NCBI GenBank assembly: GCA_036645935.1
Contig: JAVXNE010000001.1
Span: forward strand, 384,660-448,659
DNA length: 64,000 nt
Reading direction: 5' to 3'
DNA from: Oscillospiraceae bacterium
GTDB taxonomy: Bacteria > Bacillota > Clostridia > Oscillospirales > Ruminococcaceae
Part shown: one piece after another, positions 53,515 through 64,000 of the stretch
How positions within the stretch are numbered: position 1 is the stretch's first letter
Layout: each line of letters opens with the position of its first letter
The notes under the pieces: generated by a model
Seen by the model: only the letters and a program-made list of their open reading frames with translations
What the model was told of the DNA's origin: nothing
The model's database searches: none
Program-made: the position numbers and the translations under genes

Positions 53515-54114
53515 TCAGTCGGAGTTTTTCAGCGCGAGCACCTCACTTATTGCGTCTCGAAGCTCATCCTCGTCAACAGCGCGCGTCACCGAGCTGTACA
53601 GATTGCCCTCGCTGTCAACAATCACCGTGGTTGGAAGTCCCACTATCGAATATGCGCGCGTACCCTCCCCGAGAGTGTCGTAGTAAACGGGAAATGTGAA
53701 GCCGCTCTCGGCAATAAACCCCTTTGCCTTATCAACCGTCTCTCCTGAAGCTTCGTCGGTAGCGTTGAGCATAACAAAATGTACTTCGTCCCTAAATTCC
53801 TTATATACCGTTTCAAAATCCGGCATCTCCCGGCGGCAGTATCCACACCATGTTGCCCAAAAATTCAGCACGACCGGTTTTCCGCGCAGCGAGCTCAACG
53901 TCACTTCATTGCCATCAGAATCCATCGCTGTAAAGTCGGGCACCTCGATGGGGACAGCAGCGTCACCACCCTGCTCATTTTGTCCGCCACCCGCGTCCTC
54001 TGCCAGGTTCTCCAATCCAGCTTTGTCTTTTAGTGCCCTGTACCCAAACGCCGAAAGCGCCAACAGCGAAACTATCGCAAGCACCAGCAGCAATGTCTTT
54101 ATCGTTTTATTCAT
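53515..54114 (-). CDS. TlpA/ResA-like thiol-disulfide oxidoreductase (thioredoxin fold, membrane-anchored)
   Basis: N-terminal TM; WATWCGYC CxxC motif. The ATG at 54114 follows a GGAGA SD. Confidence 0.8.
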   Translation of the reverse strand: MNKTIKTLLLVLAIVSLLALSAFGYRALKDKAGLENLAEDAGGGQNEQGGDAAVPIEVPDFTAMDSDGNEVTLSSLRGKPVVLNFWATWCGYCRREMPDFETVYKEFRDEVHFVMLNATDEASGETVDKAKGFIAESGFTFPVYYDTLGEGTRAYSIVGLPTTVIVDSEGNLYSSVTRAVDEDELRDAISEVLALKNSD

Positions 54115-54125
54115 CTTAATCTCCA

Positions 54126-54835
54126 TCACAGTGTTATCGAATTCAGCAGTGCGCCCAGCCGGCCCGTCATCATCAGAATTCCCACGACAATGAGAAGTGC
54201 ACCGCAAACAACATTTACGCTTCGGTAGTTTTTCTTAATGAACGCAAACGTACCTTTCAGCCGATCTATCAGCAGCGCGCTCAGAACAAACGGGATACCC
54301 AATCCCAAAGAATAGACAAGCAGCATCAGCATCCCTCGCGCCGCCGTGCCCTGCTGTGAAGCGAGCAGCAATGCCGAGCCGAGAAAGGCGCCGACACATG
54401 GAGTCCAGCCAACCGCAAACACCGCTCCGAAAACCGCGGCCGAACCGAAACCCAACGGCCGAACCGAGCTGTTCAGACGAACTGAAGCGTTGAGAAATCC
54501 AATTTTGAGCACTCCAATGTAATTGAGTCCAAATACAATCACTATCGCCCCGCTCACAATGTTGACCGCTGTCTCGTGCTCGCGCAGCACCGTGCCCACC
54601 GTTCCCGCAAATGCACCAAGCAAAACAAACACCGCCGAAAAACCCAACACGAAACCCAGCGAATTCACGAGCGCGCGGGATGAGTTTTTGGGCTTGCCAT
54701 TCTGCGCCGAATCCGCCTCGCTCTGCGCGGTCTGCTCTCCGCCCGCAAAATAAGCGATGTAGATAGGAAGCATCGGGAGCAGGCAGGGCGAGATGAACGT
54801 TATTATTCCCTCTAAAAACGAGACCAGATACTGCA
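54126..54835 (-). CDS. ccdA: Cytochrome-c-biogenesis/thiol-disulfide transporter CcdA (DsbD-core family)
   Basis: FISPCLLPMLP and GWTPCVG conserved cysteine motifs; six TM segments. The ATG at 54835 follows an AAGGGGAG SD. Confidence 0.8.
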
Positions 54836-55329
54836 TATAACTCCCCTTAGTTTTTGCTGTCAAAACTGACCTGTCAATGCTCTTTATTATGATCCCTGCT
54901 GCCATATGCATACAGTCGAAGTTGAGTTTTAATATTCGTCTTTCCTGAAAAGCGCGTTCTGCACAGAGTTTGCGGCACAATCCATATTCACGCCGCCACG
55001 CAGCGACCGGTAAATCTCTGTTCGCGCTCCGCGCAAGCTGCGGAGCACACCCATCACGACTGTGTGTCGCTATCCGCGCGAGGCAGATTCTGCTTTTTAT
55101 GCTATGCTGCTTTTTAAAAATCCACAAACAAAGACAGACAGCAGCATCTGCCACCGAACGTGATTTGTCTCTCGCAATCATTCCCGCTCGAGATGTTCCA
55201 ATTATATTGATAACGGCACCCCCATGTCAACGCAAGGCGCTGCTCAATGTGACCGAATCACATTGAGTCGAGTTCAAAAGACCGAACTTTAAAAAACGCA
55301 CAATTTTATTTTGCCACAAGAGATTGTTC

Positions 55330-56270
55330 GCGGTCGATAGCCGGATTGCAGTCATCGGTGCGGGCTTTCTCTCTCTCGTGGGATTTCTCTCTCTCGTGGG
55401 CTTTCTCTCTCCCTCGCGGGATTTCTCTCTCTCGTGGGATTTCTCTCTCCCTCGCGGGATTTCTCTCTCCCTCGCGGGCTTTTTCGCTCTCTCGCGGGAT
55501 TTCTCTCTCCCTCTCGGGCTTTCTCTCTCGTGTGATTTCTCTCTCCCTCTCGGGCTTTCTCTCTCGTGTGATTTCTCTCTCCCTCTCGGGCTTTCTCTCT
55601 CGTGTGATTTCTCTCTCTCGTGGGATTTCTCTCACGTGGGGCTTCTCTCTCGTGGGCTTTCTCTCTCCCTCTCGGGCTTTCGCTCCCTCGCGGGACTTCT
55701 CTAGCGTGGGACTTCTCTCCCTCTCGGTTTTTCTCTCGCGTAGGCTTTCGCTCCCTCGCGGGTTTTCTCTCTCGCGTGGGTTTTCTCTCTCGCGTGGGTT
55801 TTCTCTCTCTCGTGGGCTTTTTCGCTCTCTCGTGGGCTTTTTCGCTCTCTCGTGGGCTTTTTCGCTCTCTCGTGGGCTTTTTCGCTCTCTCGTGGGCTTT
55901 CTCTCCCTCGTGGGACTTCTCTCTCGTGGGACTTCTCTCTCGTGGGACTTCTCTCTCGTGGGACTTCTCTCACGTAAGGCTTCTCTCTCACGCAGGTTTT
56001 CTCTCTCTCGTGGGCTTTCGCTCCCTCGCGGGACTTCTCTCTCGTGGGACTTCTCTCACGTGGGGCTTCTCTCTCACGCGGGATTTCTCTCTCTCGTGGG
56101 ATTTCTCTCACGTGGGGCTTCTCTCTCCCTCTCGGGCTTTCTCTCTCGCGGGATTTCTCTCTCCCTCTCGGGCTTTCTCTCTCGCGGGATTTCTCTCTCC
56201 CTCTCGGGCTTTCTCTCACGTGGGGCTTCTCTCGCGCGGGACTTCTCTCGCGCGGACAATTTTCTGACGC
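55330..56270. repeat. About 940-bp degenerate tandem minisatellite, pyrimidine-rich on the plus strand (units TCTCTC-TCGYGGG-MTTTC of 15-21 nt; higher-order periods 36 and 20 nt)
   Basis: Read directly from the sequence. Almost no A on the plus strand, so five of six frames are open, giving ER-rich (REREIPRERKPE) or SL-rich low-complexity ORFs. Confidence 0.85.
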
Positions 56271-56323
56271 TCGAGGTAAAAATGTGACAGATAATTAAAT
56301 GTTGAAAAATAAGTTAAAATGAC

Positions 56324-56491
56324 ATGAACAGAAAACATTTATCCCAACAAGAACTTGCTGAACTGGTGGGAGTTTCCAGTAATACAATTAGCTCCATAGA
56401 AACGGCCCGGTTTAATCCTACTGCTAAATTGGCACTTGCGCTATGCATTGCTCTTGATAAAAAGTTTGAGGCCTTGTTTTGCTTTTAATAA
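56324..56491 (+). CDS. Small XRE-family (Cro/CI-type) HTH transcriptional regulator, 55 aa
   Basis: MNRKHLSQQELAELVGVSSNTISSIETARFNPTAKLALALCIALDKKFEALFCF has the canonical HTH_3 core QxxLAxxxGVSxxxISxIE. It is below the ORF-track length cutoff and has a weak SD. Confidence 0.5.
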
Positions 56492-56562
56492 AATGATAAG
56501 TTTGCCATGTATATGTCACTCCCATCAGCTTCTTTTCGAGGGTAGCTGAGATAATCCTTATA

Positions 56563-56605
56563 ATCAATACCGCCCTTCTGATTTTCAAGTCAGTAGGGCG
56601 GTATT
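56563..56605 (+). terminator. Hairpin terminator after the XRE gene
   Basis: aataccgccct-N18-agggcggtatt followed by ttaaatt. Confidence 0.4.
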
Positions 56606-56857
56606 TTAAATTGCAGATCTATTCTTCCATAGTGCTTTCATCGGCTATCATTTAGCTGTAACGCCAAACGATTTTGGTTTCCGTAACCATCCTTATCCTG
56701 AAGAGCCTTACCGTCCGTTCCTCTTTATTCTTAATCGCAATGCGACTAAACCCGGCGGGCTGACACTGTCCTACTCAGCGTGCAAATCTTAGCGGATATA
56801 TTTTACCGCGCGTGATAACAGTGTGTGGCCAATTGAGCGTCGCCGTCAAAATTTCAT

Positions 56858-57667
56858 CTATGCTTTGAGCATGGCATAGTCGCCGATCTCCTCAAATCCG
56901 ATTTTTTTGTATATTGATGCGGCGACAGGGTTGTCATAAAAAATGCTGACAAATCCACGGCCGCGCGCGAGGCTGTCACGGCAAACCGCCGACACTGCCG
57001 CGCTCGCAAGCCCTCTTCCTCGCATGTCCTTGCGTGTTGCAACTCCGACTACCATTCCTCCTATGCTGCATCTCGCCGCTATTGCCGCCGTTGAGATCAG
57101 CTCTCCGCTCTCGTCAAACACCCCGAAGCAGCTGTCTGAACCACTGGCAAGCTCGGCGCGCTTTTCCTCAATGCGCTGTTCGAGTTTTCCGATATAGTCG
57201 TCGCGAAACTCGTCGATCTCACAAAAAAACGAAATTATCTTTTCGGCTTCCTGCGCTCTCATCGGCCTTATCAGCGCGCTCCCATAATTCAGCTCAAACC
57301 CATGTGCTTCACGGCAGCGCGCAAGACGCGTCATGCGCAACTGAGTGTGTTTGACATAAGGCGCAATCGCCGCCACCGTATCCGACTTGCCGCTTATCAT
57401 CTCAAAGCCGTGAGCAGACAAAAAATCCGCAAGCGCGCGTGAATCAAAATCCCCGTCGCGCGAATATATCACCCAGCTATTGTAAAACCGCAGCGCGATA
57501 CAGGTTATCGCGCCGCAATCACGCAAAGCAAAAACCTCCACATGCTCGGAATCAAAGCCGCAGTTTTCTGTGTCTCCGATTATAAACATGTTGTATTCCG
57601 GTTCGGCAAAAAGATATTCAAGCAGCGCCTCTCTGTTTTGTTCCCGGAGCTTTTCAATGTTTGTCAT
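56858..57667 (-). CDS. GNAT-family acetyltransferase (C-terminal GNAT fold)
   Basis: C-terminal QRGRGLA...FYDNPVAASIYKKIGFEE acetyltransferase motif. The start is assigned to MTNIEK because an upstream small ORF occupies 57676-57813. Confidence 0.6.
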   Translation of the reverse strand: MTNIEKLREQNREALLEYLFAEPEYNMFIIGDTENCGFDSEHVEVFALRDCGAITCIALRFYNSWVIYSRDGDFDSRALADFLSAHGFEMISGKSDTVAAIAPYVKHTQLRMTRLARCREAHGFELNYGSALIRPMRAQEAEKIISFFCEIDEFRDDYIGKLEQRIEEKRAELASGSDSCFGVFDESGELISTAAIAARCSIGGMVVGVATRKDMRGRGLASAAVSAVCRDSLARGRGFVSIFYDNPVAASIYKKIGFEEIGDYAMLKA

Positions 57668-63722: not shown

Positions 63723-63907
63723 GGCTTCTCCTCCAGTTTGTGGCAGCTGCGACCGCGTTACCGCGAATGTCAGTTGCCGCGCCGCTTGGGCTCCACGCGA
63801 CCTCGACGCTTTGAGTCGTCGCCGTGCGTTTTCCAACTTCACCCGCTTGTACTTGATTCGTGCTTTTACACCGTTCCATTTTAGGGCTGTTCACTGCTCT
63901 CTGGTCT

Positions 63908-64000
63908 GTTCTTTGGTCTGGCTCTTTGGTCTGGCTCTTTGGTCTGGCTCTTTGGTCTGGCTCTTTGGTCTGGCTCTTTGGTCTGGCTCTTTGGTCTGGC
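63908..64000. repeat. Tandem repeat of a 14-bp unit (CTCTTTGGTCTGGC), at least 7 copies, running off the window end
   Basis: Read directly from the sequence. Confidence 0.8.

Follow-up and report, generated by a model that had tools for sequence, protein, structure and literature searches.

Is a long, adenine-poor tandem array in a bacterial genome a gene, a regulatory element, or a product of repeat growth? The array in question lies between ccdA and a small open reading frame (ORF) for an XRE regulator in a stretch of 64,000 nucleotides (the window) from an Oscillospiraceae bacterium (GenBank assembly GCA_036645935.1, contig JAVXNE010000001.1, positions 384,660 to 448,659). A first reading, made from the sequence alone (the original prediction), had left it as either a noncoding contingency element or a degenerate low-complexity protein. 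We find that it belongs to a known kind, the bacterial minisatellite or variable-number tandem repeat (VNTR), and stands out by being long, extremely depleted in one base, and set within a decayed gene module. With moderate confidence, we see it as a noncoding, lineage-specific minisatellite with no dedicated function, which expanded through slippage and unequal recombination after the decay of a DUF6442-XRE gene pair had left unconstrained DNA.

By splitting the sequence at the invariant TTC[T/G]CT, we parsed positions 55362 to 56260 as one head-to-tail array of 50 abutting units, with lengths of 16 nt (n = 18), 18 nt (n = 18), 20 nt (n = 13), and 22 nt (n = 1). Tandem Repeats Finder marked 55362-56249, where periods of 16, 18, and 20 nt compete, at about 47 to 49 copies and 72 to 75% matches. 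The array and the features inside it are as follows:

55362..56260, no strand: minisatellite array; plus-strand consensus TTCTCTCTC(TC)CGTGGGAT; plus strand 4% A, minus strand purine-rich.
55501..55608: perfect higher-order block of three 36-nt copies, each made of a 20-nt and a 16-nt unit; GCA_036647715.1 lacks one of the three.
55801..55898: block of four 20-nt units (55801-55880) plus one 18-nt unit (TTCGCTCTCTCGTGGGCTTT); GCA_036647715.1 is 55 nt shorter here.
55917-55964: perfect block, 16 nt x 3.
56119..56210: second 36-nt higher-order block, 2.5 copies.
56232..56255, plus strand: terminal hairpin of 10 bp with 7 G-C pairs, TCGCGCGGGA-CTTC-TCTCGCGCGG then ACAATTTTCT; terminator-like on the plus strand only.

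Adenine accounts for 37 of the 899 bases on the plus strand of the array (4%), compared with 23.9% for the whole window (binomial P ~4e-60), and the strand is 73% pyrimidine and 23% G. When the consensus 18-mer was searched with up to three mismatches, 23 matches fell within the array and 1 elsewhere in the 64 kb (0.07 in shuffles). This confirms that the array is real and far beyond chance. The parse, Tandem Repeats Finder, and the base counts bear out the original prediction of a long, degenerate, strand-asymmetric tandem array, and its superperiods of 36 nt and 4 x 20 nt were found again (55501-55608, 56119-56210, and 55801-55880); the limits it gave, 55330-56270, are corrected to 55362-56260, and its unit size of 15 to 21 nt is corrected to 16 to 22 nt.

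The aligned unit reads TTC-[T/G]-CTCT-(CT)-(CC)-C-[T/A/G]-C-[G/T]-[T/C]-GGG-N-[T/C]. T1, T2, C3, C5, T6, and C13 do not vary; 49 of the 50 units have C11, and at least 45 have each G of the GGG. All unit lengths are even: the classes are separated by CT (or CC) dinucleotides within the pyrimidine tract, and an occasional extra TT after the GGG is a second source of length difference. Perfect nested blocks are embedded in an array that is otherwise about 75% identical. Bacterial minisatellites are recognized by head-to-tail copies of a 10- to 100-bp unit and by signs of unit gain or loss, and the array has both, the latter in its perfect blocks of 3 x 36, 4 x 20, 3 x 16, and 2.5 x 36 nt.

The window sequence is identical to that of a metagenome-assembled genome (MAG; GCA_036642875.1, contig JAVXTC010000001.1, Oscillospiraceae bacterium). 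Two exact ORF sequences from within the array recur elsewhere (the 193-aa ORF in five contigs and the 126-aa ORF in six), and four short-read contigs terminate within the array with matching sequence. Because the same array ORFs are found in five to six long contigs and the short-read contigs match inside the array, it is not an artifact of one assembly record. The retrievable assemblies of the species show zero differences across 7 to 11 kb of flank; they are therefore effectively one clone and silent on the long-term stability of the array. In one of them, GCA_036647715.1, where the contig is 15.9 kb long, the array has only 45 of the 50 units, being short of one 36-nt superunit and of 55 nt of the 20-nt block, with 0 single-nucleotide polymorphisms in 11 kb of flank; the 45-unit length fits real slippage and short-read assembly collapse equally. 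This loss of whole or partial units inside perfect blocks is the sole difference seen between assemblies. The earlier view of the array as slippage-prone thus stands, given the perfect higher-order blocks and a 45-versus-50-unit difference that falls exactly in those blocks (collapse being possible).

The array carries no coding signal. Only the plus frame starting at 55364 is stop-free across it, giving a 313-aa ORF rich in serine and leucine (SL-rich; 55346-56287) that starts with TTG and has no Shine-Dalgarno sequence. There are three stops in each other plus frame and two to four in each of the three minus frames, and the original count of five open frames was overstated (one of six is stop-free). 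The single open plus frame is explained by the shortage of A on that strand. As 32 of the 50 units are not multiples of 3 (only 18 are), the same unit comes up in each of the three frames and yields no constant peptide repeat. Pfam gave no match to either conceptual product, the SL-rich one or the minus-strand one rich in glutamate and arginine (ER-rich). The protein database search that the original prediction had proposed, run with the 313-aa SL-rich product against 5.8 billion proteins, returned no homologue, although composition correction may hide self-like ORFs. The hallmarks of a protein-coding tandem repeat (a unit that is a multiple of 3, one frame kept, and homologues) are thus lacking. 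Public gene calls place hypothetical proteins of 126 aa (55324-55704) and 193 aa (55706-56287) on the plus strand of the array; both owe their open frames solely to the lack of A on this strand and are probably spurious gene-caller artifacts.

At the RNA level, Rfam gave no match in 54000-57500 at E values of up to 1, and folding of the two array strands (z = -4.6 and -6.8) was as expected for repeats with small palindromes and does not discriminate. A by-eye comparison with SigB -10 (GGGTAT), parS (CACGTG core), Chi, CRP/Rex box, TRAP, and CsrA motifs yielded none that fits.

The right-hand flank of the array holds the following features:

56284..56488, plus strand: decayed XRE (HTH_3) gene; ancestral GTG at 56284, residual 54-aa ORF at 56324-56488.
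56266..56287, plus strand: possible last codons of a lost DUF6442 gene (..LTLEVKM* versus ..ITLVD* in homologues); a faint likeness and weak evidence.
56563..56605, plus strand: 10-bp hairpin AATACCGCCC...GGGCGGTATT then TTTAAATT, between the XRE remnant and a convergent GNAT gene, as read from the sequence.

From the GTG at 56284, the XRE reading is VTDN*MLKNKLK*; the TAA at 56296-56298 is in frame. Against four intact homologues, the DNA aligns only with a 2-nt gap just before the residual ATG (a -2 frameshift), and both the N-terminal stop and the frameshift fall in the first 16 codons. The 54-aa ORF is without the first ~16 residues of its 66- to 72-aa family, and it differs at four residues that are identical across seven aligned homologues (R to S, GQ to AR, and Y to C). 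This HTH_3 family is very large, with members 77 to 86% identical to the ORF; the 120 homologues listed are all longer (65 to 85 aa, nearly all 66 to 72 aa) and have the N terminus MxDxLILKNxLKxARxEK. Judged by these lesions, the XRE ORF (56284-56488) is a pseudogene remnant, which leaves no live gene or promoter on the right side for the array to regulate. Of the flanking genes named in the original prediction, the ccdA/DsbD_TM gene at 54126-54836 (minus strand) and the HTH_3 ORF at 56324-56488 (plus strand) are confirmed, the latter, however, as a decayed remnant.

Intact relatives of the XRE gene have a constant partner. At seven loci (L069 to L075, with two distinct homologues among them), a DUF6442 gene comes directly before the XRE gene or overlaps it and encodes a membrane protein of 106 to 110 aa. 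The window holds no trace of DUF6442 (tblastn E > 0.9), and the array flanks hold no remnants of a DUF6442 operator or promoter. We also found no array-unit seed upstream of intact DUF6442-XRE modules or in related ccdA loci. An intact 66- to 72-aa XRE gene preceded by a same-strand DUF6442 gene is thus not present in the window. With the XRE gene broken and DUF6442 undetectable, the array occupies the exact position of the missing upstream partner and so sits in the remains of a decayed two-gene module. The TGA of the array-spanning ORF (56285-56287) overlaps the ancestral XRE start as GTGA, and the hairpin at 56563-56605 is likely the terminator of the former DUF6442-XRE unit. In two intact modules (L072, 1684-1789, and the same place in L073), we observed a perfect 51-nt tandem duplication in the 5' leader, with inverted operator-like repeats (TTGACAAG...CTTGGCA) upstream of it. 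A literature search on DUF6442 returned no paper mentioning it.

The left-hand flank has its genes on the minus strand:

54126..54836, minus strand: ccdA (DsbD_TM); a neighbor, not part of the array.
53515-54120, minus strand: TlpA-like thioredoxin gene; a neighbor, downstream of ccdA.
55230-55201, minus strand: predicted sigma-70 promoter TTGACA-18-TATAAT (12/12 match), directed at ccdA-tlpA; 131 bp separate it from the array.
55243..55267: inverted repeat with perfect 10-bp arms, CTCAATGTGA-N5-TCACATTGAG, on the upstream side of the -35 element and close to it, between the promoter and the array; operator- or activator-site-like.

The first array unit lies 131 bp beyond the ccdA -35 element, and the promoter and the palindrome are both on the ccdA side. 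Because both lie wholly outside the array, its copy number cannot alter the geometry of the ccdA promoter. Contingency loci have their tract inside an ORF or between promoter and operator elements, and the array is in neither position. The earlier suggestion of a contingency element acting on divergent promoters is therefore unsupported on both sides: the ccdA promoter is 131 bp away, and the XRE side is a pseudogene. The closest CcdA homologues outside the species are 63 to 68% identical. We examined two ccdA-tlpA loci on long contigs (CcdA 64 to 67% identical); both have closely packed upstream genes and no array, and the array therefore appears to be lineage-specific (n = 2). As side observations, the inverted repeat at 55243-55267 resembles a TGTGA/TCACA box, but with a spacing of 5 nt, and ccdA has a leader of ~358 nt (54837-55194, minus strand) with a terminator-like hairpin at 55155-55137. 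This leader gave no Rfam match, and its folding is not unusual (z = 0.24).

The minisatellite explanation draws these observations together. It is indicated by the even, CT-step unit lengths and the perfect nested blocks within a ~75%-identical array, and by a between-assembly difference that consists only of unit loss in perfect blocks, with short-read contigs ending in the array. It is further implied by the lack of Rfam, Pfam, or protein matches, by the stops in five of six frames, and by the 32 of 50 units that shift the frame. The genomic setting points the same way, as the XRE neighbor is decayed, DUF6442 is undetectable, the related ccdA loci are array-free, and the ccdA promoter lies outside. 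We propose that replication slippage and unequal recombination would have multiplied a seed of ~18 nt that included a short (CT)n tract together with a small palindromic core rich in G+C (CGCG or CACGTG). Slips of two nucleotides within the CT tract would have given the 16-, 18-, and 20-nt classes, and duplication of blocks of units would have given the 36-nt and 20-nt higher-order repeats. The expansion may have taken place in unconstrained DNA, in the place of the lost DUF6442 gene and its promoter, beside the frameshifted XRE remnant. We infer both this slippage and recombination origin and the lack of a dedicated function, the latter being probable.

To see whether such arrays occur elsewhere, we scanned one genome from each of 185,579 species with a degenerate two-unit pattern. 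The 16 matches are about our own rough chance estimate, and the source species is not among them. Three lie in long Lysinibacillus arrays, and comparable long arrays were found only there, which agrees with the earlier claim that an array of this length is unusual. In Lysinibacillus sp. NPDC056232 (L020, 6563-7564), a 1,002-bp array with 5% T on its purine-rich strand, built of ~48 units (ATACCCGCGGAAGCAGAGAGA) that are 21 or 19 nt long, lies between the stop of katE (catalase) and a bidirectional terminator hairpin, and in L. mangiferihumi a similar array precedes an opp-type ABC operon. The Lysinibacillus arrays (L020, 6563-7564; L007, 7835-8000; L012, 1-606) measure ~0.6 to 1 kb in 19- or 21-nt units, each with a constant ATACCCGCGG core and a variable purine-rich part. 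A metagenome scan with a three-unit pattern gave 33 loci, mostly short iteron-like arrays (3 to 14 units), and in one soil contig (L024), 21-nt units with CGCGAGAGAGAA extend over at least 640 bp and lie upstream of a radical-SAM gene. In the metagenome and viral scans, the shared motif is imposed by the pattern and there was no control scan; these matches are not counted as evidence.

The window, Lysinibacillus, and soil arrays resemble one another in size and unit number, in having length variants of 2 nt and a depletion of one base, and in a (GA)n tract that adjoins a GC palindrome. Like the window array, the Lysinibacillus and soil arrays are intergenic, with 0.6 to 1 kb in ~30 to 50 units of 19 to 21 nt; one base makes up 5 to 10% of one strand, and the core is GAGAGAA-NN-CCCGCG or CGCGAGAGAGAA. 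They differ in their flanks (3' side of katE, upstream of opp, and upstream of the radical-SAM gene), and in L012 the purine-rich part is variable. In all four long arrays, as we read the ORF lists, an adjacent gene is encoded in the sense of the purine-rich strand; this four-of-four co-orientation is weak (P ~0.06) and is also expected from leading-strand purine and gene bias. Unit similarity beyond the pattern-forced bases is slight (~2 of 8 positions); common descent is thus not supported, and we make no claim of homology. The resemblance could stem from an expansion-prone sequence design together with leading-strand purine and gene bias, or from a shared function. Neither the window array nor the Lysinibacillus array matched plasmids or phages by BLAST, a result to which the low-complexity filter may contribute, and literature searches on Lysinibacillus tandem repeats and bacterial minisatellites found no description. 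Within the window itself, a second, small tandem array at its right edge (63896-64000, running ~15 bp past the window; L059, 8396-9161) has about nine copies of a 13-nt unit, GCTCTTTGGTCTG, with no A on the plus strand. It lies between the fructose-bisphosphate aldolase and PrmA genes, where two other assemblies have a 100-N scaffold gap.

Several points weigh against a functionless minisatellite. Bacterial genomes tend to delete useless repeats, and a degenerate 50-unit array implies either an expansion that is both recent and continuing or some selection. TTC, C5, T6, and C13 are invariant and the GGG is kept in at least 45 of 50 units, while other positions vary freely. Arrays of very similar size and design, with a GAGAGAA..CCCGCG-like core, exist in Lysinibacillus sp., L. 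mangiferihumi, and the soil contig, and the purine-rich strand matches the adjacent gene's sense in four of four, which fits a shared function or mere mutational or strand bias.

The main rival is a functional RNA, which we regard as unlikely. Transcription of the purine-rich minus strand could yield a repeat RNA serving as a multivalent sponge or scaffold for an RNA-binding protein, Hfq being one candidate. The plus strand has 46 (TC)3-5 tracts, which are (GA)n on the minus strand, about one per unit; these 46 (AG)3-or-longer tracts are potential Hfq (AG)n ligands by sequence alone. The distal face of Bacillus subtilis Hfq binds (AG)3A (PMC3287200). In Lysinibacillus L020, the purine-rich sense strand spans from the katE stop to the terminator hairpin, and the ~40 nt separating katE from the array showed us no terminator; the RNA would there form a 3' untranslated region (UTR). 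The co-orientation of the purine strand with the adjacent gene and the similar size and unit number in distant taxa are also consistent with a sponge. Against it, a minus-strand promoter search upstream of the window array gave only a 9/12 match (56588-56560), no Rfam family was hit, and the (GA)3+ tracts are not conserved in related arrays (2 in L012 and 16 in L020); the co-orientation, as noted above, is expected from leading-strand bias too.

A broader version of this idea has an equally slim chance: that ~1-kb, ~50-unit, one-base-depleted arrays with a GAGAGAA-NN-CCCRCG core form a recurrent functional class in distant Firmicutes (Oscillospiraceae, Lysinibacillus) and perhaps beyond, serving as purine-sense UTR or stand-alone RNA sponges (e.g., for Hfq) or as a DNA-level element. 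The window copy would then be live rather than junk.

Just as improbable, in our view, is a DNA-level cis element, in which the array offers ~50 sites to a DNA-binding or nucleoid protein, or acts as an insulator or upstream modulator (a contingency locus) whose copy number tunes the ccdA-tlpA promoter. Its position directly upstream (-160 and beyond) of a perfect consensus promoter and the several invariant unit positions would suit such a role, as would short iteron-like arrays of GGGNNTTCTCTC units in metagenomes; the metagenome matches, however, were forced by the search pattern and had no control. The promoter and the palindromic site are both outside the array, on the same side, and the unit spacing of 16, 18, and 20 nt is irregular and out of helical phase. 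Related arrays have no conserved partner gene beside them, and the two related ccdA loci examined work without an array.

The original prediction had also proposed triplex formation. An H-DNA motif is a homopurine-homopyrimidine mirror repeat in which a short spacer separates arms of at least ~10 nt. The array has marked strand asymmetry (73% pyrimidine on the plus strand) and many short CT tracts, but its longest homopyrimidine run is 17 nt, its (TC)n tracts are 6 to 10 nt, and no perfect mirror exceeds 11 nt (CTCTCCCTCTC). When homopyrimidine mirror repeats were searched for directly, allowing spacers of up to 12 nt, the best had 9-nt arms with a 9-nt, G-containing spacer, and no arms reached 10 nt. 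The array thus has no H-DNA motif, and the earlier claim is poorly supported. The GGG runs are 12 to 17 nt apart, too distant for canonical quadruplexes. Intrastrand triplexes require three blocks of at least 6 nt with 1- to 6-nt loops (PMC4666352), which the 3-nt G runs would not provide. Small palindromes (CGCG and CACGTG) allow slipped hairpins, which would favor slippage. Taken as a triplex or other non-B DNA hotspot, the array is therefore a very doubtful case.

A low-complexity repeat protein, SL-rich from the plus strand or ER-rich from the minus strand, is the least credible option of all and close to negligible: one plus frame is open throughout, its TGA overlaps the ancestral XRE start, where DUF6442 normally ends, and gene callers list two ORFs here, but the lack of A accounts for that frame, its TTG start has no Shine-Dalgarno sequence, the units shift frame, every minus frame has stops, neither Pfam nor the protein search gave a relative, and the downstream partner gene is dead.

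In practice, short-read assemblies of this MAG species break at the array, and spurious ORF calls are drawn to it; the "XRE regulator" beside it is to be treated as a pseudogene. The array is a clear example of large repeat growth in gene-decay space, in a bacterial genome where a deletion bias is expected. The look-alikes pose the question of whether a (GA)n plus GC palindrome design is intrinsically expansion-prone or whether such arrays are kept for a function.

Among known systems, CRISPR arrays likewise have many direct repeats in a noncoding region, but theirs are separated by ~30-nt unique spacers, whereas the units here abut without spacers, as had been recognized from the start. The simple-sequence contingency loci of phase variation also have a repeat tract near a promoter, with a length changeable by slippage. 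Their units are 1 to 8 nt, in contrast to the 16- to 20-nt units here, which are outside the promoter and operator and neither in an ORF nor between promoter elements. CsrB/RsmZ-type sponge RNAs share the many short imperfect repeats with a period of ~18 to 20 nt, some with GGA. In those RNAs, GGA is present in most repeats and a family model matches; here, GGA occurs in only 19 of 50 units (as GGGA), Rfam gives no match at E values of up to 1, there is no defined promoter-terminator pair, and the array is three times longer. The closest counterparts are bacterial minisatellites and VNTRs, examples of which are the loci used in multiple-locus VNTR analysis (MLVA) typing and the noncoding ~21-bp TR6 and TR10 arrays of Clostridioides difficile. 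Like them, the array is intergenic, consists of head-to-tail 10- to 100-bp units, is degenerate with recently duplicated blocks, would change by whole-unit gain or loss, and breaks short-read assemblies. It differs from them in its three length classes, which arise from an internal dinucleotide tract, in a copy-number polymorphism between strains that is putative, all assemblies being clonal, in its unusual length (50 units, 900 bp), and in its extreme one-base depletion.

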